From a virus (lineage: Duplodnaviria; Heunggongvirae; Uroviricota; Caudoviricetes), in the IMG/VR virus record IMGVR_UViG_2778261537_000013: a stretch of DNA of 33,509 nt; one strand, given 5' to 3'. The position numbers and the translations under genes were made by a program. Positions 1 through 25,747 of this stretch are shown piece after piece; position 1 is the first letter of the stretch, and each line of letters starts with the position of its first letter. Under the pieces are notes generated by a model that was not told the DNA's origin, searched no databases, and saw only the letters and a program-made list of their open reading frames with translations.

Positions 1-141
1 TTACTGCTTACACTGTAAGAACGCCGCAAACTCCGCTCCCCAGAAGCTCATCCGTATTTCGCACAGTGAACCGTGCAGCATCCAGATGATGAGGATTGCC
101 GTCACGCAGAACGTGATGGCCGTAAGCGATTTTTGCGACAT
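1..141 (-). CDS. Hok/Gef-family type I toxin-like small membrane protein (46 aa)
   Basis: Not in the ORF track (<60 aa). Hand translation of the minus strand from ATG 141..139 to TAA 3..1 gives MSQKSLTAITFCVTAILIIWMLHGSLCEIRMSFWGAEFAAFLQCKQ: an N-terminal hydrophobic helix followed by an LCEIR motif, as in Hok/Gef/RelF toxins. AAGGAG lies 8 nt upstream of the ATG. Confidence 0.5.
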   Translation of the reverse strand: MSQKSLTAITFCVTAILIIWMLHGSLCEIRMSFWGAEFAAFLQCKQ

Positions 142-271
142 AGCACTTGCTCCTTTTCTGGAGAGGCGCTAACCTTTCACTTGTCAAGGTAATGCGGTTA
201 GGGCCTCGGTTAAACAGGTATGTTTTCCGGGGCCTTTCCACATCTGGCCTTCGGGTATTCCCTCCGACCAT
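8..271 (-). CDS. Mok-like overlapping reading frame covering the hok-like gene (87 codons)
   Basis: ORF-track frame 8..271 starts upstream of the hok-like ATG, reads through it in another frame and stops just past it. This is the hok/mok translational-coupling architecture; the protein itself is not recognisable. Confidence 0.3.
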   Translation of the reverse strand: MVGGNTRRPDVERPRKTYLFNRGPNRITLTSERLAPLQKRSKCYVAKIAYGHHVLRDGNPHHLDAARFTVRNTDELLGSGVCGVLTV

Positions 272-331
272 CAGCCGAAAGGCACCCGCGCGTAATCTAT
301 CGCTTTTTTGTTACTCCGGCAATTCTGCCTG

Positions 332-592
332 TTAATTCTGAGGTAAAGGCAAGCTCATCTGATTGTTTCCCCTGTGTGAAGCTGGCAGCTCATGCCACGG
401 GATACCTTCTGAAGAGTGAACGCCGGAGGCGTGTTTCGATGTGAATTTATGGAAAGCTTCCAGTGTTGAGAAGCATACGCCGCATTCCAGGTTGTTACAC
501 TGGTAATACTTTTGCCGCACAGTGTTTGAATCATTTTCCGGACGACTGGTGCGGATGCGGGCAGATGCGCCACAAAGCGGACAACGGAACAT
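332..592 (-). CDS. ogr: Ogr/Delta-family zinc-finger late-gene transcriptional activator
   Basis: N-terminus MFRCPLCGASARIRTSRPENDSNTVRQKYYQCNNLECGVCF carries the Cys-X2-Cys...Cys-X4-Cys spacing and RTSR motif of P2 Ogr. It is co-directional with D, as in P2. The 86-aa ORF is longer than the 72-aa P2 Ogr, so the C-terminal end is uncertain. Confidence 0.8.
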   Translation of the reverse strand: MFRCPLCGASARIRTSRPENDSNTVRQKYYQCNNLECGVCFSTLEAFHKFTSKHASGVHSSEGIPWHELPASHRGNNQMSLPLPQN

Positions 593-768
593 AGCGACCT
601 CCCTAACGTGGTGCTGCCGCTATTCTAAGTTGTATAAGTTGAGATTCCAACTAACAGCCTGCTTTGAACGATGTTATGATGCATATCTGTGTATTAGTGC
701 ACGGTAGAAACTGTGGTTATCAATTAAAACAAGCAGAAATTATTCTTTCATCTGGAAATGGATAAAAA

Positions 769-1593
769 ATGACTGACTTTAAATATCAATCTGATAGTTA
801 TGATAGACAATCACAAAAATTTGTTATTCCGCTCTACATACGAAATGAACTAGGCGATTATAATTATTCATCGACTGGAACGTTTATATATTACAAGCAA
901 TCACACTATGTGGTTTTTGCTGCTCATGCTCTGAGGGATAAAGATGACATCAGAAATATTTACATACTGGGTTCTGATGGTGAATTTTTTGCTTTGACTA
1001 GTATCTCTATAGGACATCGAATTTTTGAAGAAGATGATTTAGTCATTGTCGATTGCTTTAATATGATACTTGATGGGAAAAATTATTTCTCGCTTAAAGA
1101 TAATTTCAATTTTATTGGATTTGATAAGAAACATTTTGCATGGACAGGCTTCCCTAAAAACTGGTGCAAAACACAAACAATTCACAGAACAAAACGCCCT
1201 AGTTCAATAGTAAATCAAACGGTAGCTTCTAACGAAGATGGCCTGTTTTTTAAAAATGCCAAGTATTTCACTATAATATCCGAGGTTAAAACATTCAATA
1301 AAATTGAAATAACAGGAACATACAAGGTTAAGAATATAGATTTAAAATATAAAGGACAGGTAAGTAAAGGCCCTTCTCCAGAGGGAATGAGTGGTGGTGC
1401 AATGTATTTTTTCTCTAAGGGGCAAGAATTAAAAAAAGAACTGGAGTCAACATTTCTTTTGGCTGGAATTGGTTTGTCTTTTAAAAAAGATGGAACAATA
1501 GTGGGAATTAGCCGTTATCGTATGATTGAGCTATTTGAACAGTTTAATGAAGAATCACCTATAGAGTGTTCTCTTCATTTTCAACAAGAATAA
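769..1593 (+). CDS. Cytoplasmic trypsin/chymotrypsin-fold serine protease-like protein (AT-rich cargo)
   Basis: 274-aa ORF with no N-terminal signal peptide. Candidate catalytic triad in canonical order: His in VVFAAHAL, Asp in DDLVIVD, Ser in GPSPEGMSGGAMYF (GDSGG-like). Strongly AT-rich compared with flanking phage genes, on the opposite strand to ogr and D, with its own terminator. Confidence 0.6.
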   Translation: MTDFKYQSDSYDRQSQKFVIPLYIRNELGDYNYSSTGTFIYYKQSHYVVFAAHALRDKDDIRNIYILGSDGEFFALTSISIGHRIFEEDDLVIVDCFNMILDGKNYFSLKDNFNFIGFDKKHFAWTGFPKNWCKTQTIHRTKRPSSIVNQTVASNEDGLFFKNAKYFTIISEVKTFNKIEITGTYKVKNIDLKYKGQVSKGPSPEGMSGGAMYFFSKGQELKKELESTFLLAGIGLSFKKDGTIVGISRYRMIELFEQFNEESPIECSLHFQQE

Positions 1594-1620
1594 TCCCTGT
1601 GCTCCAATTATACAAAATCA

Positions 1621-1649
1621 CAGCCTCTGTATGAGGCTGTTTTATTTTT
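1621..1649 (+). terminator. Intrinsic terminator downstream of the protease-like gene
   Basis: Hairpin cagcctc-tgtat-gaggctg (7-bp stem) followed directly by TTTTATTTTT. Confidence 0.6.
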
Positions 1650-1809
1650 AACCATTAATTCTTCAATGTGCATAAGCACTATTTAAATGAGCCAAGAAGA
1701 ATATGCTACTAGCTAACAACTCACTATTTAGCATAGAGCCAATTGTTAGATTAAAATCTGGAGATAAGTGTGCCAGCTTGAGTCTGGGTCAATACGTCTA
1801 AATTACTCA

Positions 1810-2916
1810 CTATGTTTCTGCTATCCATTCCGGGATTTTTGCTTCAAGCTCAAGCTGTGTGGTAAAGCCGCTGTTATCAATGGTGTGCTCGGCTTTTGCA
1901 ATAATCCAGTCCTGATTATCAATCTCGCTTTTAAATCCTGTTACCGTGCCATGCATTTCGGGGTAGAGTTCTGCGCGTCCACGTGCCAGTGTGATGGAGA
2001 ATGATGCGGCTCCGCGTTGTAGCTGCTGCCACTTTGCCGCCGCTGCGCGTCTTGCTGCCTGCTCGTTCTGATAAGTCTTGCGTAACACAAACACATTGCC
2101 TTCCGCGCCTTCCATATAATCACCTTCACGGCTGCTGCTTTTCTCCTTTTTGGGTTTTGGCGGTTTGCGGCGTTTCACGCTGACTTTTTTCTTTTTCCCG
2201 TAATTAAGATCAAGCCAGTAAGCGCGTACCCCCGTATACGCTTCGCGGTCAGCAATGCGGAACTGATGGCGATCGCCGCTGCTGCGTGTAATGGCGAACG
2301 AGGGCAACGGCTGGCCCTGCGCGTTCACACCACCACCTGGCATGATGAATAACAGATTGCCGCTTTTTACCGTGGTGATTGCGCCCAGCATTTCCGCCAT
2401 GCGCGTAAGGAAGGACATGTCGCTTTCTTCGGTCTGGTCGGCGTGGTCGATTTCGATATCCATCAGCATTTCGCTGATTTGCGGTTTCAGACCGTACCGA
2501 TGAGCGATGGCGGATACCACACGCTCAACGGTAACATCATGCCAGGACACCTCACGTTTAACGTTAAATTCATCCCGAAAATCTGCGCTTCTGGCTGAAA
2601 CAGTCAGCCTGTCCGGCGGTCCTTCGTGAGCGATTTCATCAACAATGTAAGTGCCTTTTTCTGTCAGCGGTTCTCCTTTCCAGCCAATGAGAACCGTCAG
2701 GCGCGCGCCCCGTGGCGGTAGCTGCAACTGACCATCCGCATCATCCAGCGTGATGGTGAGCTGGTCCGCCTCAAATCCCCGGTTGTCGGTCAGTGACAGG
2801 CTCATCAGGCGCTCTGCCACGCCTGACAACGTTTTACCCTCCGCGAGAATATCAAAATCCGGCATTTTCACGGGGTCTGTGCCCTGACTGAGCAATTGCA
2901 TGGTGGTGTCGGTCAT
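1810..2916 (-). CDS. D: Tail protein gpD (late control gene D family)
   Basis: Protein from MTDTTMQLLSQGTDPV onward matches P2 gpD motifs (LTDNRGFEADQL, GPPDRLT, SARSADF, REVSWHD, SFLTRMAE, GVRAYWLDL). Start set at ATG 2916..2914, preceded by GGGAGGG; the ORF-track frame is open further upstream to 3048. Confidence 0.9.
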   Translation of the reverse strand: MTDTTMQLLSQGTDPVKMPDFDILAEGKTLSGVAERLMSLSLTDNRGFEADQLTITLDDADGQLQLPPRGARLTVLIGWKGEPLTEKGTYIVDEIAHEGPPDRLTVSARSADFRDEFNVKREVSWHDVTVERVVSAIAHRYGLKPQISEMLMDIEIDHADQTEESDMSFLTRMAEMLGAITTVKSGNLLFIMPGGGVNAQGQPLPSFAITRSSGDRHQFRIADREAYTGVRAYWLDLNYGKKKKVSVKRRKPPKPKKEKSSSREGDYMEGAEGNVFVLRKTYQNEQAARRAAAAKWQQLQRGAASFSITLARGRAELYPEMHGTVTGFKSEIDNQDWIIAKAEHTIDNSGFTTQLELEAKIPEWIAET

Positions 2917-3073
2917 TTGTTCCCTCCCTGTGCGGCATGGTCGCATGTGCGTGTGGAGGGGGTTACTGCTTTTTGTTGTCGTCGAATCGGGAGAACGGCG
3001 CAGGGGTGAGATTACGCGCGTGGTGGGTGATGATTGTTGCCGAATCATTTAACGGATACAAGGGGCTGAAGCT

Positions 3074-4258
3074 ATGAGTGAAACTCGTTTTCATGGTGCC
3101 CGTGTTACGGAAAGTACCGACCTGGTAACAGCGATTAATGATGTTGATTCCAGTGTTATCGGTATCGTGGCAACGGCGGATGATGCGGACGCGGAGCTGT
3201 TCCCGCTGAACAAGCCCACACTGCTGACCCGCGTCAATGACGTGCTGGGAAAATGCGGGACAACGGGGACGCTTTATCGTGCGCTTAAGGCTATCGCAGA
3301 CCAGGTGAGCACAAAGGTGATCGTCGTTCGCGTGGCTGAACACAAAGAAGAAGACGGAAAGACACAGGATCAACTGGTTATCGGTGGTTCTGAATCTGAC
3401 GGCAGCTATACGGGGATGTATGCGCTGCTTGTTGCAGAGCAGGATGAAAGCATCGGATACCGTCCGCGTATTCTGGCTGCGCCGGAGCTGGACACGGAGG
3501 CGGTAACAAAATCCCTGTGCGTGATTGCGGGTAAACTGCGCGCGTTTGTGTATGCCTCATGTCACGGCTGTAACACGATGGCTGAGGTGATTACCTACCG
3601 CCAGAAATTCAACGAACGTGAGGTGATGCTCTTATGGCCGGACTTCATCGCCTACAACCCGAAAAGTGGTAAAAACGAAACGTTCCCCGCGCCTGCCTAT
3701 GCGTGCGGCCTTCGTGCGTACATTGACCATGAGCAGGGATGGCACAAATCACTGTCCAACGTTCCGGTTAAAAATGTGCTGGGGATGTCGAGGCATGTTT
3801 TCTGGTCGTTGCAGGCCGAAGACAGTGATGCCAACAGCCTTAACAACAAAGAAATCACGACCATTATTCGTCGCAACGGGTTCCGCTTCTGGGGCAACCG
3901 CACACCGGAAACGAACGCCTACATCTTTGAGGTGTATACCCGAACCGCACAGGTGCTGGCTGATTCAATTGCGGAAGCGCAGTTTGAAACCATCGACAGT
4001 CCACTGACACCTGCGAACGTGAAGGATGTTATCAGTGCCATCAGGGCAAAACTGGATTCACTGGTTACTGCCGGGAGACTGATTGGCGCGGAGTGCTGGT
4101 ATGACGTGGTGGATAACAGCACCACGGATTTACGTCAGGGGCGTGTGCGTATTCGCTACAAATATACGCCCGTTCCGCCACTGGAAGACATGGAGCTTTA
4201 CCAGACGTTTACTGATGAATACTTTGAACCCGCATTTGCGGCGCTGGGAGGTGCCTGA
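3074..4258 (+). CDS. FI: Contractile tail sheath protein gpFI
   Basis: 394 aa with P2 FI-like motifs (FPLNKP, GKLRAF, WPDF, HEQGWHKSLSNV, IRRNGFRFWGNRT, YTRTAQV, YTPVPPLE). Confidence 0.92.
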   Translation: MSETRFHGARVTESTDLVTAINDVDSSVIGIVATADDADAELFPLNKPTLLTRVNDVLGKCGTTGTLYRALKAIADQVSTKVIVVRVAEHKEEDGKTQDQLVIGGSESDGSYTGMYALLVAEQDESIGYRPRILAAPELDTEAVTKSLCVIAGKLRAFVYASCHGCNTMAEVITYRQKFNEREVMLLWPDFIAYNPKSGKNETFPAPAYACGLRAYIDHEQGWHKSLSNVPVKNVLGMSRHVFWSLQAEDSDANSLNNKEITTIIRRNGFRFWGNRTPETNAYIFEVYTRTAQVLADSIAEAQFETIDSPLTPANVKDVISAIRAKLDSLVTAGRLIGAECWYDVVDNSTTDLRQGRVRIRYKYTPVPPLEDMELYQTFTDEYFEPAFAALGGA

Positions 4259-4770
4259 TGGCTGTGCCAAAACATCTTCGCTTTTTTACGCTGTTTGTGG
4301 ATGGTGAAAACGAAGTGGGTAAGGTGACGTCCGTCACTCTGCCTAAGCTGACGCGCAAAACCGACAGCTACCGGGGGGGCGGCATGATGGGTGCGGTAAG
4401 TATTGATCTCGGTCTGGACGACTCCGCGCTTGATGCGAGCTTTGTCATGGGGGGCGCAGTTCGTGAGCTGTTCCTTAAGTATGGCGGCACGATTGACGGC
4501 ACGCTGCTGCGTTTTGCGGGTGAATACTACACCGATGCAGAAAGCGACCTGTATGAAGTCGAAATGCGCGGACGTGTGACGGAAATTGATATGGGGGAGG
4601 CCAAACAGGGCGAAGCCACATCACACACTTACGCCATTAAAAACACCTACTACAAGCTGAGTGTTAACGATCGCCCGTTGTGGGAGATTGACCTGCTGAA
4701 CTTCATTTACCGGAAGGACGGCAAGGACATTGTGCCCGATCGCATCCGTTCCGCGCTTGGGCTTGGCTGA
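4258..4770 (+). CDS. FII: Tail tube protein gpFII
   Basis: 170 aa immediately after FI with an overlapping stop/start; P2 FII-like sequence and size. Confidence 0.9.
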   Translation: MAVPKHLRFFTLFVDGENEVGKVTSVTLPKLTRKTDSYRGGGMMGAVSIDLGLDDSALDASFVMGGAVRELFLKYGGTIDGTLLRFAGEYYTDAESDLYEVEMRGRVTEIDMGEAKQGEATSHTYAIKNTYYKLSVNDRPLWEIDLLNFIYRKDGKDIVPDRIRSALGLG

Positions 4771-4824
4771 TAAGTAATATGCAGGCGGCGCAGTGCGTCG
4801 CCTCTGACTGCAAGGAGTTTCCTG

Positions 4825-5190
4825 ATGAAAGAGACGAAAAACATCGATACCGAAAACACGGTAGTTGCTGACACGGTGAAAGAAACCAGTGAGCGTGGCG
4901 TAAAACTTACCCAACCAATTGAGCGAGGCGGCGAAAAAATCACGTATGTGGAGATCACCGGGGCTATTGAGCAGGCTGGATCTCTGCGAGATTTGTCGCT
5001 GTCTGATGTGCTGAATCTGAAAGCGGAATCCATGTTTACGCTGCTGTCACGCGTGACATCACCGCGACTGGATGAAGTGACGATCAAAAAAATGGCATCC
5101 CGTGACTTTATTCAGTTATGTGTGGTTGCCGTAAATTTTTTGAGCGGTGCGGACTCTGGCGGGAAGAACGAACAGGCGACGGAAGCCTGA
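4825..5190 (+). CDS. E: Tail assembly chaperone gpE (zero-frame product)
   Basis: 121-aa ORF between tube and tape-measure genes, with a T-run slippery site near its 3' end. Confidence 0.85.
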   Translation: MKETKNIDTENTVVADTVKETSERGVKLTQPIERGGEKITYVEITGAIEQAGSLRDLSLSDVLNLKAESMFTLLSRVTSPRLDEVTIKKMASRDFIQLCVVAVNFLSGADSGGKNEQATEA

Positions 5191-5354
5191 TCACGGTTGT
5201 GTGCTTTGAGCACATAGAAGACTTTGTGGCAGATATTGCCGTTATTTTTAACTGGTCGCCCGCCGAAATCTTCATGATGACGCCCGGCGAAGTGGTTAGC
5301 TGGCGTGAGCGGGCGGCACTTCGCAGCGGGAATGCAGATAATGAAGACTCTTGA
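4825..5354 (+). CDS. E': gpE+E' extended tail assembly chaperone made by a programmed -1 frameshift
   Basis: The -1 frame (ORF track 5118..5354) is open across the 3' end of E. Slipping at AAT TTT TTG yields ...NFF ERCGLWREERTGDGSLITVV..., matching the downstream ORF, which ends where T begins. Confidence 0.7.
5136..5142 (+). other. Candidate -1 frameshift slippery heptamer (TTTTTTG) of the E/E' pair
   Basis: T6G run located inside the E/E' frame overlap; the same arrangement is described for P2 E/E'. Confidence 0.65.
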
Positions 5355-8148
5355 TATCCGGGTCGCTTTCAGCGCCGTTGACAGGCTGACCCGGCCTGCC
5401 GAAAACGCCCGCCGCCTGATGGGGCAGTTTGGTGACTCCATCCAGCGAACGCAGGGGGCGATCAAAAATCTCGAGCGTCAGGCGCGTTCATTTGAGCGCG
5501 CCCGCGACGCTGTCAGTAAAGCGGATGCTGGCATATTGAAAGCACGACGCCAGCTTAACGCCCTTAATCAGTTACAACGCACGGGTACAGTGCTCAGCGA
5601 AAAACAACAAAAGCTGATGCAGCAGTTAAGCACCCGGCTTGAACGCCTGAATGAATCGCGCACACGGGAAATTCAGAAAATGCGGGAGCTTGGCGGAGAG
5701 CTGAAACGCCACGGCATTTCCCTGACAGGCAGCGATAACACCATCCAGCAGGCCATCAGACGCACCGAACAGTACAACAACCAGCTTGAACGCGAACGGC
5801 AGGCGCTTGCGCGTGTAACACGGGCGCGTGAGCGGTATTCGCGCGCGCAGGAAACAGCGGGAAAACTGAAAACAGGTGGTGCGCTGGCAATTGGTGCGGC
5901 AGCGGCGGGCGGCTATGCTGCCGGGCGTTTTTTGCAGCCTGCGATCGGGTTCGGCAAAGAGATGTCCCGCGTTCAGGCACTGACGCGAATCGACAAAAAC
6001 AGCCCGCAGTTTAAGGCGCTGCGTGAGCAGGCGTTAAAACTTGGCTCTGAAACACAGTTTACTGCGAGTGATGCCGCCAGTGGGCAGAGCTTTCTGGCAA
6101 TGGCTGGTTTTACTCCGCAGGCCATTCAGGCCGCATTGCCCGGTGTTCTTAATATGGCGCTGGCAGGTGGCGTCGAACTCGGCGAGACGGCTGATATAGG
6201 CTCCAATATCCTCACACAGTTCAACCTGACAGCCGATCAAATGGACCGGGTGGGCGATACGCTGACAGCAGCATTCACCCGGACCAATACTGATTTACGC
6301 GCGCTGGGCGAAACCATGAAGTATACCGGTCCGGTTGCCGCAAAACTTGGTATCAGTCTTGAAGAAGCGGCGGCCATGGCCGGGATGCTTGCCAATAATG
6401 GTCTTCGCGGAAGCGATGCTGGCACGGCCATGCGCGCAAGTCTGTCCCGCCTTGCATCACCGCCAAAAGCTGCGGCTGATGCGCTGAAAGAGCTGGGGGT
6501 GTCAGTTGCTGACGCCAGAGGCAAAATGCGCCCGATGGAGGATGTGCTGCTTGATCTCTATAAGGCGACACAAAAATACGGACAGGTGGACCAGGTTTCC
6601 TTCTTCAAGGACATCGCCGGAGAAGAGGCGTTTGTTGGTTTACAGACGCTTGTTGCAGCGGCTGGTTCAGGAGAGCTGCAAAAACTGACCAGAGAATTGC
6701 AGGGGGCAAGGGGAGAGGCCGATCGCGTTGCAAAAGTAATGGCCGATAATCTTGATGGTGACCTGAAAAATCTCGACAGCGCATGGGAAGGTCTTCGTAT
6801 TCGCATCAGTGATCTGGTTGACGGTCCGCTGCGTTCTGTCACGCAGTGGCTCACGCGGGTACTTGAAAAAATCACCTCGCTGGCGCAGGCCCATCCGGTA
6901 CTGACGCGCCAGCTACTGATAGCAGGCGGTGCGTTGCTGGCAATGACTGCAACGATTGGCTCGTTGTCACTGGTTATTGGGGTGCTTTACGGGAAGCTGG
7001 CCACCCTGCGTCTTGGTTTCGAAATTCTTACCCGGTCAATGAATGTTGTCAGAGTGTTGCCTGCGTTATGGGGAATGGTGACGGGGTCCGTTTCTTTACT
7101 GGGAGGCGCTATCGGGGCGTTGTTCAGTCCGGTCGGTCTTATCGTGGCTGCGCTTGCCGGAGCTGCCGTTCTCATCTGGAAATACTGGGATCCCATCAGG
7201 GCATTTTTTGCCGGGGTGTTCAGCGGGATTATGGAAAGGCTGACCCCGTTGCGCGAAACCTTTGAACGGTTTGGCCCTGTTTTTGACGCAATCGGAAGCG
7301 GGATCAGCCAGGTGTTTAACTGGTTTAAATCGCTGTTGTCACCGATGGAGTCCAGCAAGGAAACGCTGGATAAATGTACCAGTGCTGGCGAGATATTCGG
7401 TAACGTTCTTGGTGGCGCGCTACAGCTTGTTCTGACGCCTGCAAAAATGTTGCTGGATACGCTGGCGTGGATACTTGAAAAACTCGGTGTGCTTCCGGAT
7501 GAAGCGGAAAGGGCGAGAAAGAAAATCGAAGACGCACAGCGTGCGGCCATTCTTCAGGACAAGGTTGCTCTGTTTCAGGGAGACATTGCGAAAATCAATC
7601 CGCCGAAGTCTGCGGAAAATGGCAATGGCACCGGAGGCGATAAACCCAAAGACAACAAACCGCTCACAGACAGCAATACCGGCACGTTACGCAGACTCAG
7701 CAAAATTGCTGATAACACAGGTAAGCTGGTTGATGAGACGAAAAAACGCATTGGCCCCGGCGATATTGTCTTTAAGAACCTGCCCCGCGCACTTGCTGTT
7801 CGTGGGGAGTGGCAGGAGCGGAAGATTGCACAGGTCAGTAAGCCTGCCCCCGCAATTAATATCACCCCCGTGGTCCCGGCTCCGCTGCCTCCGGCGCTGG
7901 TCCCTGTTGTTGCGGCCAGCTCCCGCCCGGTGGCGGAGGCCATACGATCTCCAGTGGCATCAGTTCCTGTAACTTCCCGTAACCGGGAGCCTGTTGCCTC
8001 CGGATTTGGTGGTGAAATTCATGTTCATCTGCATAACGTTGTTACGCAGAATCCCCGCGAACTGGCGAAACTGGTCGGTGAAATGGTCAGGGCAGAATTG
8101 GAACGACGCGACCGTGCCGGACGTGGCAGTTTTTACGATAAAGATTGA
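5341..8148 (+). CDS. T: Tail tape measure protein gpT
   Basis: About 936 aa with an N-terminal coiled-coil region, a central alanine/glycine-rich segment and hydrophobic stretches, in the position after E/E'. Start chosen at ATG 5341 (MKTLDIR); in-frame alternatives at 5305 and 5332 cannot be excluded. Confidence 0.85.
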   Translation: MKTLDIRVAFSAVDRLTRPAENARRLMGQFGDSIQRTQGAIKNLERQARSFERARDAVSKADAGILKARRQLNALNQLQRTGTVLSEKQQKLMQQLSTRLERLNESRTREIQKMRELGGELKRHGISLTGSDNTIQQAIRRTEQYNNQLERERQALARVTRARERYSRAQETAGKLKTGGALAIGAAAAGGYAAGRFLQPAIGFGKEMSRVQALTRIDKNSPQFKALREQALKLGSETQFTASDAASGQSFLAMAGFTPQAIQAALPGVLNMALAGGVELGETADIGSNILTQFNLTADQMDRVGDTLTAAFTRTNTDLRALGETMKYTGPVAAKLGISLEEAAAMAGMLANNGLRGSDAGTAMRASLSRLASPPKAAADALKELGVSVADARGKMRPMEDVLLDLYKATQKYGQVDQVSFFKDIAGEEAFVGLQTLVAAAGSGELQKLTRELQGARGEADRVAKVMADNLDGDLKNLDSAWEGLRIRISDLVDGPLRSVTQWLTRVLEKITSLAQAHPVLTRQLLIAGGALLAMTATIGSLSLVIGVLYGKLATLRLGFEILTRSMNVVRVLPALWGMVTGSVSLLGGAIGALFSPVGLIVAALAGAAVLIWKYWDPIRAFFAGVFSGIMERLTPLRETFERFGPVFDAIGSGISQVFNWFKSLLSPMESSKETLDKCTSAGEIFGNVLGGALQLVLTPAKMLLDTLAWILEKLGVLPDEAERARKKIEDAQRAAILQDKVALFQGDIAKINPPKSAENGNGTGGDKPKDNKPLTDSNTGTLRRLSKIADNTGKLVDETKKRIGPGDIVFKNLPRALAVRGEWQERKIAQVSKPAPAINITPVVPAPLPPALVPVVAASSRPVAEAIRSPVASVPVTSRNREPVASGFGGEIHVHLHNVVTQNPRELAKLVGEMVRAELERRDRAGRGSFYDKD

Positions 8149-8154
8149 GGAGTC

Positions 8155-8649
8155 ATGGCCATGATGATGATCTACGGCATGTTTGTTTTTGAGTTGCGCA
8201 CGTTGCCGCATCAGCAGTTACAGCAAAACAAAAGCTGGCGACATGTGAAAAATGAACGCGTTAACCGTTCGGCAAGCTGGCAGTATATCGGTGCAGGTGA
8301 TGATCGCATCGTTCTTTCGGGTGTTCTTTATCCTGAGATTACAGGTGGCGAAGTGTCGCTGTCGTTGTTGACCACGCAGGCATATACAGGACGCCCCTGG
8401 CCTCTGATTGATGGCGTCGGGCAGATTTACGGCATGTATGTCCTGACCGGAACGAATACGACCCGCTCCGAGTTTGATCGCTACGGTAAGGCGAAAAAGA
8501 TAGAATTTTCACTGACTCTTGAACGCTGTGATGAGGATTTGCGGGAGCGCCTGCAATCCTCATCGTTCAGCGATATGTTGTCCGGCTTCAAAGATAAGGT
8601 GACATCATCCCTTAACAGCGCGGCCAGTTCAGTTAAGGGGCTGCTCTGA
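8155..8649 (+). CDS. U: Tail protein gpU
   Basis: 164 aa; MMMIYGMFVFELRTLP...SWRH...ITLSGVLYPEITGG...WPLIDG resembles the P2 gpU family; lies directly after T. Confidence 0.88.
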   Translation: MAMMMIYGMFVFELRTLPHQQLQQNKSWRHVKNERVNRSASWQYIGAGDDRIVLSGVLYPEITGGEVSLSLLTTQAYTGRPWPLIDGVGQIYGMYVLTGTNTTRSEFDRYGKAKKIEFSLTLERCDEDLRERLQSSSFSDMLSGFKDKVTSSLNSAASSVKGLL

Positions 8650-8659
8650 TTTAACGTAT

Positions 8660-8702
8660 GTCGCCAGTTTCCTGATGAAGGTGACTGGCGACTTGCTGTT
8701 GT
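8660..8702 (+). terminator. Candidate intrinsic terminator after U
   Basis: 9-bp inverted repeat gtcgccagt / actggcgac with a 15-nt loop, followed by a T-rich tract (ttgctgttgt). Confidence 0.45.
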
Positions 8703-8805
8703 ATGTCCTTCTCAGAAAATTGTTTTTGAATAACAAATAACAGGATTTTATAATCTCTTAACCTTATAACATGTGTGGTCTGAAATAATAATTAAGGAGA
8801 TTATC

Positions 8806-9378
8806 GTGCTGTCTTACTTAATGGCAATTCACTTTGTTTTATTTGGGAACTCTACTAATTTAAAAAACTTCTGGAAATATGAAGTAATTCGGCGGAAACG
8901 TATGGATATCTGGAGGCTTTTAAGAGAGAAAAAACAGCGTAACCGGAATTTCCTTTTCTGGTGGCGGTTGGCTAACGAAATGTATATTAATGGTAATAAA
9001 TCACATAAGAAAGCAGCCAAAAAGTTAAACAGTAAAATAATTAACAAATTTGGTTGCGAAATTGGATTGGGCGCAAATATTGGAAAAGGGTTAACAATTC
9101 CCCATCATGCTGGAATTGTTGTTCATTTTGCTGTTGATGCTGGTGAAAATCTGGTGTTACGACAGAATACGACCATTGGACAGATAGATGGTGACATACC
9201 TGGTTCAAGAGTAAAAATTGGTAGCAACGTTGATATCGGAGCTAATTGTTGCATCATTGGATTATCACGTAAAATTGGGGATAATGTAAAAATAGGTGCA
9301 ATGTCTTTTATAAATAAAGATATACCATCGAACTGCACATATATAACTAAAAAGAGCGGTGTTGTATTGTATAAATAG
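8806..9378 (+). CDS. Hexapeptide-repeat (left-handed beta-helix) acetyltransferase, CysE/WcaB/NodL-like (AT-rich cargo at the Z/fun position)
   Basis: C-terminal half is built of hexapeptide repeats (IGANIGKGLTI, IGSNVDIGANCCIIG, IGDNVKIGAMSFI). GTG start at 8806 is preceded by AAGGAGA; the ORF-track frame opens at 8773. Visibly AT-rich; lies between U and G on the strand opposite to G. Confidence 0.65.
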   Translation: MLSYLMAIHFVLFGNSTNLKNFWKYEVIRRKRMDIWRLLREKKQRNRNFLFWWRLANEMYINGNKSHKKAAKKLNSKIINKFGCEIGLGANIGKGLTIPHHAGIVVHFAVDAGENLVLRQNTTIGQIDGDIPGSRVKIGSNVDIGANCCIIGLSRKIGDNVKIGAMSFINKDIPSNCTYITKKSGVVLYK

Positions 9379-9387
9379 AGTACATAA

Positions 9388-9424
9388 AGCCATCGATACT
9401 TCTATCGATGGCTTTTTCTTTTTA
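9388..9424 (+). terminator. Strong intrinsic terminator between the acetyltransferase gene and the 3' end of G
   Basis: 11-bp perfect stem agccatcgata / tatcgatggct with a cttc loop, followed by TTTTTCTTTTT. Confidence 0.75.
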
Positions 9425-10000
9425 TTGTGGGGCGACTGGCCACTCAATATCTGCTGCTACTGTTGTATCAACACGATTCAACAATACTCGATATGTCTTC
9501 CATGCTGCCAGTAACGATGCCTCTTCCTCCGTCGCAATATCCAAATCTATAGCATCCTGAAGTGGTGCAATATGCTCACTGGCTACCTGCATCAGGCTGT
9601 TTTTTGTTTCTTCCGCCTCCCTTATCCGAAATAGTTTTTCTGCTTCTGCATCTTTCACCCAGGATGTGCCGTTCCACTTCTGATACTCTCCATACGGCGA
9701 CAACCAGGTAACATTTTCCGGTAACGGACCGAGTTCAGAAATAAATAACGAGTCCCCTGATGCCACGTCATAAACCGTTTTACCCCGATGGTCTTCCACG
9801 AGATGCCACGATGCCTCATCACTGTTGAAAACGGCCACGAAGCCAGCCGGAATATCTGGCGGGGCAATATCGGTACTGTTTGCAGGCAGACCTGTATGAG
9901 GTGGAATGTATGCATCACCTTCACCAATAAACTCATTGGTTCCGGTCAGTAGATTATAAATTTTTATGGTCCGTGATTGTTCACTCATTCTGAATGTCAT
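9422..10000 (-). CDS. G: Tail fiber assembly protein (gpG-like)
   Basis: 192 aa directly downstream of the tail fiber gene with an overlapping stop/start; size and position match P2 G. Confidence 0.8.
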
Positions 10001-12132
10001 TATGCAAGCCTCACAATATAGTTAAATGCGATGTTTTTTACGGTGTTTTCTGCGTTCCCCGTAGCATTAACGGTGATGGTGTGTCCGTGGGGACCAATAA
10101 TGACAGAATGGGCATGAGCACCAATGCCGATAGTGTGGTTATGGGCACCGATATATACATTGTGAGCATGCCCTCCTGCGCTCGACGTGGTACCAGTACC
10201 TAACGCAGCGTTATAACCGGCTGATACACCATTCCCCGCGCCAGTGTGACCAACAGGTATATTGTGTGAATGAGCTCCTGCGCTATTTGTGGTTTTTGTG
10301 CCGTAATCAAATGAACTGGTCGTTTTAGTACCGTAATCAAACGACGATGTGGTTTTCGTCCCCAAATCAGTACTGGATGCGCTGGCGCTGTGGGTGTGCG
10401 ATTTAATGCCGTCCTGTTCCTGAGACAATACGGCACGACCACTGGCAGGTTTGCCCTTGATAGTCCAGCCACGCATATCAGGGATCACGCCTGACGGATA
10501 AGCGACTGCAAGTTTCGGGTATGCAGATTTGTCAAAAGTCTGCCCCTGCATCAGGGTATAACCAGACGGAACGGTATCTGATGGCCACGGAATCGGTGCA
10601 CCGACTGGATAAAACTCTTCAGGAGGATGAGCCGAGGTGTAAAGCTGCGCCCACGGCGACCAGTTTGCGTCGGTCGTATCCCGTCGTGAACGAATAAATG
10701 CCGGAGCATGAGCACCGCTTATACCACTCCAGCCGATGAGTAATTCGCCTTCGCCAACGGCTGTCATCCCTTTCAGGTGAATGATATTTCCATACGCTGT
10801 TGGATATCCGTTGTTATACGCCTCGTATAACTCCAGACCTGTGGCCCCCTGCATATTATCTGTCAGGGCGGTCACCCGACCTTTTGAAGCCAGATTAACT
10901 GACGATACTGCTGTCCCATCTGACGGTAACGCCCCGATCTCTGATGCTGTTGGCTTATTCCTGGAGTTATAGTCCCTTCGCCAGCCAGGAGCATAAGCAT
11001 CACCATGATTAATATAAGTAAATTGAGCATTAGGGATGCCTTCACCGCTGGATGTACTCGGTGTGGTAATGCGTATGGTCATTGCGCCGCGGGTGCCAAT
11101 AACTTCCACAACAGCACCTGCAAGACAAATATTTCCGCAACCTGTATCTGTAATGACCTTATTACTTGCATAAGCCCATGAGCCTTTGCACATCCAGTAA
11201 GGATGGTTAAATGCCCCCTGACTCTCTAGCCAAAAAATCAACTGCGCAGTTGTCCATGCTTCACTATCTCCACCAATATTCAGCTCTGCACTATATGCAC
11301 GGCAGGCACCGATATTTTTCGTAAAGGTGTCTTTGTCAGAGATATCCTCACCATTCTTAGCTTTCTGCAGACGTTTTTCAGCATTGTCATAGGCAGCTTT
11401 TACTGCATTTGATGTTGCCGCCAGCGTTTCAGACGTGCTGTTGGTTGCACTGCTGAGCTGGACTATCCCTTTTTGTGCCGTAGTGGCGTCCTGAGCGGTA
11501 TATTTTCCGTTAGCCATGTCATACGCTGCCTTAACCGCTTTCGGCGTTGCAGCCAGCGTTTCAGAATCGCTGTTAGTGGCGCTACTGAGTTGAACAAAGC
11601 CTTTTGCGGTCAGCGAGGCGTCCGGGTGACGTCGTGACTGTTCATGTTCTTTCAGTTTGTCATTCACGTAATCCACTGTGGCCATAACCATGGTGTTATC
11701 CACGGTAAGCGCCACGGTGGCAGTGCTGGATACGGTCAGAATGGTGCGAAATGTTTGTGCACGTCCGGATCCTTCGGCAACGGTTGGCTTGTAACTTTCG
11801 GCAGTATTGCCCACCGCGATCAAATCGCCGTGCTCATCAAATACACCAATTTCCCGGATCCAGAATCCGCCCGTTTCAGGAGGAATAACCAGCTCCGCAA
11901 TAATGCGGTTCTGATGTGTTGCGTCCAGGATGACGCGATTAACAGTATGTCGCCACACCTCATGCACCAGACGGGTCTGCTTACTGTCTGGTGTGGGCAA
12001 CGTGCCGCCACCGTCGCCCACGGCCATGTGAGTCAGGCGGACAGGATTACCATCTGGCGCGGCTGCCTGAGCTAATTTTTTGGCACCAGTATCAGTGATA
12101 ATGGTTTTAAATTTTCGTGTTGTGGTACTCAT
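10000..12132 (-). CDS. H: Tail fiber protein gpH
   Basis: 710 aa; N-terminus [23 protein letters not shown]... is P2 H-like. Internal duplicated motif ([23 protein letters not shown] twice) and a C-terminal tip with [10 protein letters not shown] tandem repeats and His-X-His repeats. Confidence 0.88.
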
Positions 12133-23393: not shown

Positions 23394-23764
23394 CTCTCCA
23401 GCTCCTGTATCAGTCAGATAATTTCACGACGCTTTCCTGCTTATTGCCATCATCGACGGTCAGACTCTTACGCAATCCCACCGCGTTAACTGCATGTTCT
23501 CGCCGCCTCAGTGCGATTTTGACGGCCTTACCTTTCACCCCATCAAATCAAAAGCCCTCACGTCTTTTTCACGCTCAGCGTGAGAAATACAGCCATTCTG
23601 TTGTGTTGCTGCGACATCGTTCAGGGGATGCTATTTACCCCCTGAAACGCGGGCTGTTCCCCCGTCACCTGCGCGCAGAAAAAACGCGTTTTTTTGTGCA
23701 CGCACGGATCCTTGACGGATCCAGCCGCCATGCGGGCCGGAAGGGTAAAAAGTCGTTCAAAAAA

Positions 23765-23791
23765 ATTGTGCAAATTTGTGCACTATTGTGC
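23765..23791. repeat. Three helically phased TTGTGCA repeats (10-bp spacing)
   Basis: TTGTGCA occurs at 23765, 23775 and 23785 in the noncoding region between Q and the accessory genes. Confidence 0.5.
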
Positions 23792-23825
23792 ATTGAAATA
23801 AATGCCCTGGAGGAGGGCGTTTTAC

Positions 23826-24233
23826 TTATCTTTTATAGCCTTGCCCCTTCCTGGCCAGCGCCCTGATGGCCGGGCGTGCCAACACCATATTTTGGCAATG
23901 ATGAATTGCCCGGCAAAATTCATCTCTACCCATTGGATGCTCAACTGGCAATGTTAAATACAGGTTCCATGCGTCGCCTAAAAGTTGGGCTATCTTTTGT
24001 TCTTCAGATGTCAGCAAGCAAGCGGTATCCGTAAAATAATCATACTTTTCATGTATGTTATTTAACGGTTTTGTCTGTAGTGCAGCCTGAGCTATACGGT
24101 ATGCCTGAAGCATACGGGCGTCGTTGATATCCATTCCGAACGGAATTTCTGATGATTGTGACTCTGCATCTTCAAGCCTGGCAATTTCTTTACGTAAGAA
24201 GTATTTCAACTCTTGTTTCTGTTTCCTGTTCAT
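23826..24233 (-). CDS. Hypothetical protein (135 aa), AT-rich accessory gene beside the cos-proximal region
   Basis: Intact ORF with charged N-terminal half; no family recognised. Downstream of parR, separated from it by a hairpin. Confidence 0.5.
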   Translation of the reverse strand: MNRKQKQELKYFLRKEIARLEDAESQSSEIPFGMDINDARMLQAYRIAQAALQTKPLNNIHEKYDYFTDTACLLTSEEQKIAQLLGDAWNLYLTLPVEHPMGRDEFCRAIHHCQNMVLARPAIRALARKGQGYKR

Positions 24234-24303
24234 GCTTTTTTTCCTTTTTCTCTGTCAATGTGTTGCATTGTGTCCCCCTTGTTTATGTTCCCGGATTAAA
24301 GTC

Positions 24304-24325
24304 ATCAGGGCGGATGCGCCCTGAT
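24304..24325 (-). terminator. Candidate terminator hairpin after parR
   Basis: 9-bp stem atcagggcg / cgccctgat with a 4-nt loop, immediately 3' of the parR stop on the minus strand. The U-tract is weak. Confidence 0.4.
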
Positions 24326-24331
24326 GTTGTG

Positions 24332-24640
24332 TTATTCGGGAAATAACGCCCGGATATTCCCGGCCATCTGGCTGGTTATCTGTGTGGTTGGTACTGGTTG
24401 TGGCGCGTTCTGTTCTACTCTGTTTTGTACCACGGCCAACTCATCGTCAGCCCATGCAGCCAGTCGGTAAGCCTCTGCCGGATTCATTTTCAGAAGTGCC
24501 AGCCCGGCCAGAAAAGCCACGCGTTGGCCGCTTTTGCGGGCTTCTGGTGTAAGGCTGTCCAGCCAGGCGCATGCTTCGCCTTCGTTCTTGACGGCGGCGG
24601 GCTTCAGATAGAAACTTATCCGTCTGGTTGGTGTCGTCAT
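24332..24640 (-). CDS. parR: ParR-like partition adaptor (centromere-binding protein)
   Basis: 102 aa from ATG 24640 (preceded by AAGGAG, 5 nt after the parM stop). RRISFYLKPAAV...LDSLTPEARKSGQRVAFLAGLAL...NIRALFPE parallels recalled plasmid R1 ParR (RRTIAFKLNPDV...LDSIP.GERS...ALTAGLAL...LRSLFP). Confidence 0.65.
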   Translation of the reverse strand: MTTPTRRISFYLKPAAVKNEGEACAWLDSLTPEARKSGQRVAFLAGLALLKMNPAEAYRLAAWADDELAVVQNRVEQNAPQPVPTTQITSQMAGNIRALFPE

Positions 24641-24644
24641 TGGT

Positions 24645-25604
24645 TTACTCCTTGTCCATTGCGTACAGCCCATTAACCAGAGCAAACTGTGGCACCCCGT
24701 CCGCGATGAAAGTCGCATTAACTCCGCAGGCTTCGCGGATAGCGGGTGCCACAATCTCCGCCCCTCCACCGACAACCATCACCCGCCCGTAACCCGAAAA
24801 AACCGCCAGCGCGCGGATCACGCGTTGTTTCAGTGTTTCTTCCTTTTCACGAATAACCGCCATCAGGCTGGCGTAATGCGCGTCATTGTGGATGTGCTGG
24901 CGCAGCCAGGCTTCATCATGGCGATGTTCGATAATGGTATTGGCGATGTGGTGACTGGTGCGCATACCGTTAGTGGCCATCACCGACAGTACGGCATCGG
25001 CCATCAGAGAAACGCCTACGTGTGGATCGCAAAACACCTGGCTGATACCTGCCAGTTGCCCCTGAACCTTTGCCACATCCAGCGTGGTTCCGCCCAAATC
25101 CACAATCAGCAGGGATTCAAACGGACTCATGTCAGCCAGTGCCTTAAAGCCAGCCGGAATGGATTCAGGCATAACCCGCACGTTACGGATAGTGAATGCT
25201 TCGCCGTTCTGGTACTCCACCGGGCGCATAACGTTCGCTTTTTTGCGGTTGATGTTGGCCATGTCCGGCTGTGCGTTTGTGTCGAAATACTCGCTCAGTG
25301 GCAGGGTGACAACCACATCCACCTCCTGTGGCGTGATGCCTGATTTGACCAGCGCGTGATGAATGGCAATGACATTCACATCGCTGTATTGGTATTGCGT
25401 GTCGGTTGTCTGGACAAAGCGATCGCTGACCGGATCAAAACCATAGCGCACGCCATCAAGCATGTAGTTCGCGGGCTGCATGCCACCGAACGGCGCAGAC
25501 CATTCCGACTTGAAGCTGTTCGGGCTGATGGCGTTGCGGCGTTCGCCGTTCTCAGTCCATGCCAGCTTGATGTTGGTGGAGCCGTCGTCGATACAAATTT
25601 TCAT
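24645..25604 (-). CDS. parM: ParM/StbA-family actin-like segregation ATPase
   Basis: 319 aa with ParM hallmark motifs in order: MKICIDDGSTNIKLAW, SPNSF, YSDVNVIAIHHAL, VMPESIPAG, LIVDLGGTTLD, GVSL, VMVVGGGAEI, LVNGLY. Confidence 0.85.
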   Translation of the reverse strand: MKICIDDGSTNIKLAWTENGERRNAISPNSFKSEWSAPFGGMQPANYMLDGVRYGFDPVSDRFVQTTDTQYQYSDVNVIAIHHALVKSGITPQEVDVVVTLPLSEYFDTNAQPDMANINRKKANVMRPVEYQNGEAFTIRNVRVMPESIPAGFKALADMSPFESLLIVDLGGTTLDVAKVQGQLAGISQVFCDPHVGVSLMADAVLSVMATNGMRTSHHIANTIIEHRHDEAWLRQHIHNDAHYASLMAVIREKEETLKQRVIRALAVFSGYGRVMVVGGGAEIVAPAIREACGVNATFIADGVPQFALVNGLYAMDKE

Positions 25605-25636
25605 GTCGCTTTTCCTTATGTTGATTAATTAATCGG

Positions 25637-25747
25637 TTACGGGATTCTGAAATCCCGTTTTTGTCTGTTTTGTGCGCGCTTCATATATCACTGCGCGTTT
25701 TTTGCTCATTTACGGGATTCGTGAGTCCCGTTTCTGTCTGTTTTTTG
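25637..25747. repeat. Two ~38-bp direct repeats, each with a GGGATT/AATCCC-type dyad, upstream of parM (candidate parC-like site)
   Basis: ttacgggattctgaaatcccgtttttgtctgttttgtg (25637..25674) and ttacgggattcgtgagtcccgtttctgtctgttttttg (25710..25747), roughly 33 of 38 identical. The second copy lies inside the 3' end of the A reading frame. Confidence 0.5.

Follow-up and report, generated by a model that had tools for sequence, protein, structure and literature searches.

The slot between the tail genes U and G of a 33,509-nucleotide (nt) stretch of tailed-phage DNA (IMG/VR record IMGVR_UViG_2778261537_000013; the whole stretch is called the window here) holds an AT-rich gene for a predicted left-handed β-helix O-acetyltransferase. 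From its surroundings, its relatives and the genes that take its place in sister prophages, it may quite plausibly, if still tentatively, be read as a moron whose product O-acetylates the lipopolysaccharide (LPS) core or another envelope glycan of the host, with lysogenic conversion or receptor masking as the outcome.

A six-frame scan of the window gave a plus-strand open reading frame (ORF) spanning 8773-9378, within which the true start is an in-frame GTG (Table 1). The same coding sequence (CDS) is annotated by RefSeq in Escherichia coli JNE151685 ('serine acetyltransferase', WP_137499227.1), a genome 99.8% identical to window 8100-10100, and the N termini of homologs align from residue 1 of the GTG-start protein. 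With a GC content of 34.9%, the CDS stands apart from U (50.5%), G (46.5%), H (50.4%) and the window as a whole (52.6%). The hairpin behind the U stop codon is terminator-like and would mark both the end of the tail (F) operon and the upstream boundary of an inserted cassette; similarity to sister prophages of the invertase type, described below, stops near window 8655. A second stem-loop, located where the acetyltransferase gene and G converge, has a folding energy of -18.0 kcal/mol on the plus strand (z = -7.3; 0/200 shuffles fold as well) and -19.4 kcal/mol on the minus strand. The original prediction had described an AT-rich gene between U and G with a ribosome-binding site of its own and a strong terminator, and each of these features was confirmed, the CDS being intact and its flanks being identified by Pfam as gpU and a tail-fiber assembly protein.

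Pairwise dN/dS ratios of 0.07-0.19 were obtained between the window allele and those of O157:H7, of two P1-like phages and of a 70%-identical sister prophage, and the acetyltransferase gene is therefore maintained by purifying selection. In the sense of Juhala et al. (2000), it has the marks of a moron, being absent from close relatives, deviant in GC and closed by a strong terminator, with a promoter that is a consensus match only. An Rfam scan of 8400-9700 returned RF02111 ('IS009') at window 9459-9657 (-), with 186 bits (gathering score 117) and E 2e-46, in the 3' half of the tail-fiber assembly gene and on the same strand; the two other matches in this interval were sub-threshold chance matches, and none is relevant to the acetyltransferase gene.

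Table 1. Genes and signals at the U-G junction, in window coordinates
Feature	Position	Strand	Details
gpU tail protein	8155-8649	+	Pfam Phage_P2_GpU 1.5e-38; RefSeq: phage tail protein; last gene of FI-FII-E-E'-T-U; left flank
Hairpin after the U stop codon	8660-8692	+	RNA fold -27.4 kcal/mol, z = -6.2
Sigma-70-like promoter candidate	8726-8754	+	TTGAAT-17-TATAAT; 10/12 consensus match
Shine-Dalgarno sequence AAGGAG	8794-8799	+	6 nt before the in-frame GTG at 8806; read from the sequence
Acetyltransferase CDS	8806-9378	+	573 nt, 190 aa, intact; GTG start at 8806
Stem-loop terminator	9386-9415	both strands fold	13-bp stem, then TTTTTCTTTTT (T-run on +)
Lambda-type tail-fiber assembly protein (gpG/Tfa)	9422-10000	-	Pfam Caudo_TAP 5.3e-41; convergent with the acetyltransferase gene
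Tail fiber gpH	10000-12132	-	Pfam Phage_tail_fib, Phage_fiber_2, Collar; 3' tip in the block common to P1-like phages

Protein class and residue pattern

By profile search, comparison with solved structures and a predicted model, the product is a left-handed β-helix O-acetyltransferase of the CysE/WcaB/EpsC clade that keeps the catalytic pair, in agreement with the type originally proposed. Twenty-eight β-helix families of NCBIfam matched the protein, none at its curated cut-off. The best curated match was EpsC (73.4 bits, cut-off 150); cysE TIGR01172 scored 61.3 bits (cut-off 210.65), PRK11132 36.9 (cut-off 397) and the WcaB models 53.8 (cut-off 196) and 52.6 (cut-off 194.65). Matches to galactoside and maltose O-acetyltransferases (LacA/Maa) were weak and far below those to the CysE/WcaB/EpsC branch. 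The Pfam scan gave Hexapep families only, and since Hexapep alone stayed below its gathering score (23.6 versus 27 bits), the class assignment rests on NCBIfam, the PDB profile and the fold. Profile search, put forward earlier as the way to sub-classify the transferase, led to this branch and reached no equivalog cut-off within it.

As a single sequence, the protein matched solved serine acetyltransferases at E 4e-13; a 48-sequence family profile matched serine acetyltransferases of the PDB at E 4.7e-24 over profile positions 54-181, with the catalytic His and Asp/Glu included. An AlphaFold2 model built from the family alignment (pLDDT 81.7, pTM 0.81) has five N-terminal helices followed by a β-rich C-terminal half, and its best Foldseek matches were all serine acetyltransferases (probability 1.0, TM up to 0.65). 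In PHROGs, the protein belongs to phrog_2154 ('unknown function'; E 2e-86). The family is small, with 18 clusters (50% identity) at E <= 1e-30 and 313 at E <= 1e-10 among 1.84 billion representatives, and it has invariant features of its own, namely an FWWRLA helix (W52, R54) and an RQNTTIG strand.

The residue pattern is shown by the analysis, as are the gene's anatomy, the selection acting on it and the fold. For E. coli CysE, we take Asp143 to be the catalytic partner, His158 the catalytic base and Asp157, Arg192 and His193 the residues that bind serine. The counterpart of Asp143 in the window protein, E85, is acidic in 85/86 family members, and that of His158, H100, is His in 84/86. Among the same 86 members, position 99, equivalent to Asp157, is P, A, G, S or T and never Asp, and positions 131-135, equivalent to Arg192/His193, are variable or gapped. 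At 190 aa, the protein falls ~80-100 residues short of the solved CysE chains aligned with it (276-293 aa). Most of the long, helical CysE N-terminal domain is missing, the alignment beginning at profile residue 54, and so is the C-terminal tail with which CysE binds CysK: the protein ends ~9 residues past the aligned β-helix, where solved CysE chains run on for at least 30. Because the serine-binding residues are not kept, the length is short and all curated cut-offs are missed, the RefSeq name 'serine acetyltransferase' is probably wrong for this gene. Searches with the window protein also gave no match to Vat/CatB antibiotic acetyltransferases in NCBIfam, 0 PADLOC families at E up to 1, no PF01757 (Acyl_transf_3) membrane domain in the Pfam scan and no similarity to P2 Fun(Z) in BLASTP (best E = 6.2).

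Occupants of the slot and exchange between phages

In P2, H and G are followed by a terminator and, on the other strand, by fun(Z); the series FI, FII, E, E', T, U, D and ogr comes next, which puts fun(Z) between G and FI. The window has D and ogr at its left (minus strand), then FI-FII-E-E'-T-U (plus strand, 3074-8649) and then G-H-I-J-W-V and beyond (minus strand again); the FI-U block is inverted relative to P2, so G faces U. Because of this inversion, equivalence to the P2 fun(Z) slot is confined to the G side. The layout is that of P88 and its relatives (Peduoviridae: Xuanwuvirus, Gemsvirus), and by gene order and sequence similarity the phage is P88-like, of the P2 family and not P2 proper. 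P88, 500465-2 and other relatives match window 1700-8655 at 92-97% identity; the similarity breaks off directly behind U, and the acetyltransferase gene is absent from them. At the U-G junction, P88-like phages and many E. coli prophages (ST131, AR_0104, FAM21845, 1303) carry a DNA invertase with an alternative fiber-tip and chaperone cassette.

The fun locus has been reported as a second accessory, defense-enriched hotspot of P2-like phages (PMC9519451, PMC13586616), and the papers on these hotspots (PMC9122126, PMC9519451, PMC13586616) do not use the word 'acetyltransferase' in their main text. The 'Z/fun position' first assigned to the gene was borne out with respect to G and to the antiparallel orientation; it did not hold for the other flank, which is U, nor for the content, given the lack of similarity to Fun(Z) and a DNA invertase cassette as the usual occupant. 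With FI-U inverted and D/ogr on the opposite strand (window 1810-8649), D must be transcribed apart from the rest of the P2 'F operon'.

T and U of this type occur in 1365/5426 complete E. coli genomes, 495 of which have the order U-acetyltransferase-G, including O157:H7, O55:H7, O111:H8 and O104:H4 strains; carriers span many O types (O157, O55, O111, O145, O104). Sister prophages bear out the view of the locus as an accessory slot, as its occupants vary among an invertase cassette, a GT9 glycosyltransferase and a second transferase. The last of these, in E. coli E-1246 (locus L023:5139-5684 (+)), is a 38%-identical paralogous 'transferase' without the conserved catalytic His; it reads SYL in place of the family PHH, and its 3' end overlaps the chaperone gene by ~37 nt. 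In another sister prophage (locus L015), a 70%-identical allele is followed by a chaperone remnant (87 aa) and an S-adenosylmethionine (SAM)-dependent methyltransferase (222 aa), both of which precede the functional chaperone (L015:5617-6605); the slot can therefore accumulate several cargo genes. The GT9 glycosyltransferase occupies the slot in 49 E. coli genomes, in strain M19 within an otherwise intact prophage and on the same strand as H-G. It is a divergent protein of 392 aa (WP_001100987.1; L106:3547-4725 (-), L112:3088-4266 (-)) that matches the LPS heptosyltransferase RfaQ weakly (24.6 bits).

Upstream of the window allele and the 70%-identical allele, ~110 nt (window 8695-8805 versus L015:4900-5000) are near-identical and hold the promoter-like site and the Shine-Dalgarno sequence, while synonymous sites of the two coding sequences are saturated (dS > 1.5). 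This comparison suggests that coding sequences have been swapped behind a constant regulatory stub in the P88-like lineage.

The gene has also moved beyond this lineage. Window 8814-10100, which runs from the third codon of the acetyltransferase gene through the terminator and tfa to the fiber tip, is 92-93% identical to the P1-like phages JL22 and vB_EcoM-Ro157c2YLVW, where the block sits within the Cin-invertible C segment between two chaperone genes; lambdoid phages have only the tfa part in common. In the JL22 record, the gene ('sacF') is given a length of 477 nt; an intact 573-nt ORF with an ATG start lies at L002:7993-8565, as annotated in Ro157c2YLVW. In a Buttiauxella massiliensis prophage with P2-type gene order, the slot between FI and G is the exact site of a 44%-identical homolog, which runs antiparallel to the two genes. 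Further placements involve more distant relatives, 50-64% identical, which were found adjacent to hok/gef at the margin of a different myovirus prophage (57% identical; toxin gene L003:5663-5803), downstream of the bfp operon on EAF plasmids of enteropathogenic E. coli (EPEC), beside an integrase gene in an island of Salmonella, on a plasmid or integrative and conjugative element (ICE) of Pseudomonas, and in phage isolates from Citrobacter, Hafnia and E. coli. An acetyltransferase gene convergent with a tail-fiber chaperone gene was seen in five species-representative loci, the copies coming from different clades. Because homologs of several clades adjoin chaperone genes in different phage types, a single hitch-hiking event with one fiber module is a weakened explanation.

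Several further observations concern this and related phages. Relatives of ~32% identity lie at ~17 kb in Streptococcus thermophilus phages (such as 9871-9874, CHPC577 and the SW series; records H129-H148), annotated 'serine acetyltransferase' or 'transferase'. At the prophage end (window left end; L001:5083-5223), a hok/gef family toxin gene adjoins ogr. About 1,640/5426 E. coli genomes match part of window 1-3100 (hok/gef-ogr-D and the start of FI), and in the six matches listed for this part the annotation shows D beside the sheath gene FI. The gpA-gpQ (old/tin) hotspot of JNE151685 holds ParM, a partition/stability protein and a DUF3800 protein (L109:6421-11633); by similarity it corresponds to window ~23400-28500, where ORFs of matching size lie at 24645-25604 and 25681-28503.

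Relatives in chromosomal LPS loci

One genome per species was scanned, which gave relatives in 201 stretches, and 78 of 80 kept loci were analyzed. Neighbors were assigned by Pfam/NCBIfam scans on crude ORF calls (longest ORFs, taken greedily), and gene boundaries in loci L024-L103 are approximate. LPS-linked loci account for ~13/78 species representatives and come from three orders; the window copy itself, being on a prophage, is not in such a locus. In six Halopseudomonas/Pseudomonas species, the gene lies 5-34 nt after a small WaaP/Kdo-like kinase gene in an apparent two-gene operon, and the pair, which is oriented divergently to msbA-hldE, adjoins a pseudaminic-acid (NeuB/PseI) cluster. 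Pelagadaptatus has msbA-hldE followed by the acetyltransferase homolog and an AT3-SGNH acyltransferase, and Zophobihabitans a same-strand run of GT9, pyruvyltransferase, acetyltransferase and GT25. The homolog adjoins a GT9 gene in Orbaceae and Gilliamella; in Pantoea, it lies directly upstream of waaQ-waaG (GT4)-waaP-waaI-like-waaY on the same strand; in Mixta, it lies near inaA/GT9/GT4 genes (LPS kinase, GT9 and GT4 on one side). None of the relatives lay inside an O-antigen or capsule cluster among the neighbors analyzed. The Pantoea locus also has a second β-helix acetyltransferase gene (L043:2556-3161 (-); EpsC 91 bits), divergent from the family member and ~330 bp upstream of it.

The GT9 that occupies the slot in sister E. 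coli prophages and the Orbaceae GT9 beside a homolog are 36% identical over their full length (E 2e-67). This is the strongest single link: the two kinds of enzyme are neighbors on a chromosome and alternatives in the phage slot. A rough neighbor-joining tree interleaves LPS-locus, phage-borne and island copies.

Candidate functions, precedents and implications

The course of events that we tentatively favor would begin with a tail operon ending at the post-U hairpin and an AT-rich foreign cassette dropped downstream of the tail-fiber chaperone gene in a P88-like prophage, where it would be transcribed in the lysogen from its own promoter, independently of the late operons. The product would be a soluble, probably trimeric, acetyl-CoA-dependent enzyme, with H100 as general base and E85 as its partner, that acetylates a hydroxyl group on a sugar of the LPS core, or on some other envelope glycan, while the glycan still lies at the cytoplasmic side of the inner membrane and has yet to be exported. 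The altered LPS surface could mask receptors for LPS-dependent phages, leading to superinfection exclusion and fewer progeny lost on debris, and might also change host interactions or recognition. The suggestion, made at the outset, that the enzyme modifies a surface glycan or receptor gains indirect support from the relatives in LPS-core loci and from the GT9 that replaces the gene in sister prophages; both substrate and phenotype, be it phage resistance or virulence, are what we infer from context and precedent.

A broader reading is possible, if rather doubtful. The junction downstream of the chaperone gene in P88-, P2- and P1-like phages could be a cassette site for interchangeable LPS-core editing enzymes that are exchanged together with the fiber tip and chaperone. 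A β-helix acetyltransferase and a GT9 that can replace the fiber-inversion module of P88-like phages might then amount to a core-level 'receptor conversion' that is coupled to the module with which the phage itself binds receptors; it would be the cytoplasmic equivalent of the membrane-bound systems (Gtr, Oac) that convert the O-antigen.

Several points weigh against LPS-core acetylation. Sigma-70-like sites were not enriched over shuffles (5 found versus 3.3 expected), so the promoter remains a candidate only. Beyond the ~13/78 LPS-linked loci, many others are orphan or mobile-element contexts that are silent on substrate; eight Rahnella species, for example, have an orphan copy between a POT (peptide) transporter and a GGDEF protein. 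In Mixta mediterraneensis (L037:2889-6567), a GH2 hydrolase, an MFS_2 transporter and the homolog form a lacZYA-like array with a 7-nt overlap. The chromosomal relatives in LPS loci are 40-49% identical to the window protein and no closer to it than other relatives, so acceptor specificity may differ. E. coli core types are not known to be O-acetylated. Fibers of the lambda Stf/Tfa type have OmpC as their best-known receptor, and because the fiber tip and chaperone of the window are of this type, the coupling of fiber and enzyme may be only physical linkage. Finally, the paper on JL22 notes the gene and calls the reason for its presence unknown (PMC9603915). Literature searches for a characterized function turned up this statement and one other, a Citrobacter rodentium prophage survey in which a table lists 'serine acetyltransferase' as a fitness gene, without data (PMC6456863).

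Among the alternatives, the same chemistry on a different glycan (O-antigen, colanic acid, enterobacterial common antigen, capsule or a nucleotide-sugar precursor), as in classical serotype conversion, is unlikely, if the likeliest of these. The exopolysaccharide enzymes EpsC (73 bits) and WcaB (54 bits) match best among the curated models, the prophage-borne β-helix enzyme NeuO acetylates a capsule, and the Halopseudomonas homologs adjoin a pseudaminic-acid cluster; yet every equivalog cut-off was missed widely, none of the neighborhoods analyzed was an O-antigen or capsule cluster, and the many O types of the E. coli hosts (O157, O55, O111, O145, O104) argue for a substrate common to these strains. 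We regard as distinctly improbable a small-molecule acetyltransferase of the LacA/Maa or xenobiotic type that detoxifies a glycoside, metabolite or antibiotic for the lysogen. The lacZYA-like layout in Mixta (GH2, MFS_2, 7-nt overlap) points to a small-molecule glycoside acceptor, galactoside and maltose O-acetyltransferases are matched weakly, and the Rahnella orphan copy stands beside a peptide transporter. Such a context was seen once only, in Mixta, the LacA/Maa matches are far weaker than those to CysE/WcaB/EpsC, and no Vat/CatB equivalog matched. The metabolite or antibiotic acceptor entertained in the original prediction accordingly found little support: the CysE serine-binding residues are absent, Vat/CatB matches are lacking and the Mixta context is the sole hint. 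A true serine O-acetyltransferase, serving as an auxiliary metabolic gene that boosts cysteine synthesis, deserves hardly any credence. RefSeq and phage records use that name and the closest solved structures are all CysE, but the scores fall far below the cut-offs (TIGR01172, 61 versus 210.65 bits; PRK11132, 37 versus 397), equivalents of Asp157, Arg192 and His193 are not conserved, and the N-terminal domain is mostly, and the C-terminal tail wholly, missing.

A counterpart of Fun(Z), that is, a non-surface anti-phage defense gene acting inside the cell on a phage or host molecule, is also improbable. It would suit a locus reported as a defense-enriched P2 hotspot (PMC9519451, PMC13586616) and the Buttiauxella homolog, which fills the exact slot between G and FI. 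PADLOC gave no match, however, similarity to Fun(Z) was not found, the main texts of the three hotspot papers are without the word 'acetyltransferase', and relatives lie in biosynthetic LPS loci, not in defense islands. A role in the virion or in the lytic cycle, in which the enzyme modifies the tail fiber, its chaperone or the surface of the dying cell so that progeny are not trapped, would explain why the gene travels with the fiber tip and chaperone. Its linkage with tfa and the fiber tip is tight across P88-like and P1-like phages, the convergent adjacency of acetyltransferase and tfa recurs in several clades, and the slot GT9 of M19 is on the same strand as H-G. We nevertheless hold this role to be very improbable: the gene is convergent with the late fiber operon and has its own signals, homologs are also carried, away from any phage, by plasmids, islands and LPS loci of chromosomes, and we know of no established β-helix acetyltransferase that acts on proteins.

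Acyltransferase morons beside tail genes are an already known kind of cargo, and acetylation of the LPS core or another envelope glycan can be set against several characterized systems. The closest documented analog is neaT of the E. coli CFT073 prophage phi-b0847, an acyltransferase moron with a bacteremia fitness phenotype (Wiles et al. 2013, PMC3573123). Like the window gene, neaT is exceptionally AT-rich, lies downstream of G in a P2-like prophage ('moron position 2'), is transcribed against the flanking tail genes and varies among relatives, and NeaT affects cell-surface behavior and virulence (PMC3573123). In contrast to the soluble β-helix enzyme of the window, NeaT is an integral-membrane Acyl_transf_3 protein (PF01757); its gene lies between G and FI, whereas the other flank of the window gene is U (inverted F block), and it is rare in E. 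coli, whereas the window gene occurs in 495/5426 complete genomes.

NeuO (CUS-3, E. coli K1) is the best-studied prophage β-helix O-acetyltransferase. It shares the left-handed β-helix and the prophage origin with the window protein, modifies a surface polysaccharide (polysialic acid) and raises resistance to phage and host defenses (PMC3046976, PMC13001214). Unlike the window protein, it is of a NodL/LacA-like branch and targets the capsule of K1 hosts, whereas the hosts of the window gene are of many serotypes. NeuO is phase-variable by heptanucleotide repeats; Tandem Repeats Finder found no tandem repeats in 8600-9500, and NeuO-style phase variation is therefore not expected here. WcaB (colanic acid) and EpsC resemble the window protein in length (~160-190 aa), in a short helical N terminus followed by a β-helix and in the same acid and His catalytic positions. 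The window gene differs in standing alone between phage tail genes, not in an exopolysaccharide cluster, in scores far below the cut-offs and in the FWWRLA motif. CysE is the closest solved fold, aligning over residues 54-181 with the catalytic His and Asp/Glu; of its other features, the window protein has neither the residues that bind serine nor the C-terminal tail, and it lacks the greater part of the N-terminal domain.

Two occupants of comparable positions offer likeness of place only in part. Fun(Z) of P2 is likewise an accessory gene just downstream of G and convergent with it, but it encodes a 528-aa protein that is not a transferase and has no sequence similarity to the window protein, and the P88-like slot is bounded by U, not FI. 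The Cin/Gin-type invertase cassette of P88 and its relatives occupies the identical U-G junction in 92-97% identical phages; through DNA inversion it varies the host range of the phage itself, whereas the window gene encodes an enzyme predicted to act on the host.

What is mildly new at this locus is the link to the LPS core, the GT9 alternative in the slot and the joint exchange with the fiber tip and chaperone between P2- and P1-family phages. If the LPS reading is true, ~1 in 11 sequenced E. coli (495/5426 complete genomes) has a prophage gene whose product edits the conserved core of the LPS, not the O-antigen. The host range of LPS-dependent phages would then be affected, with consequences for phage therapy and typing and possibly for serum or innate-immune recognition. 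PHROG 2154 would acquire a function, and the widespread annotation 'serine acetyltransferase' would be corrected. If the target is something else, the gene keeps its value as a clear case of moron exchange between phages of the P2 and P1 families.

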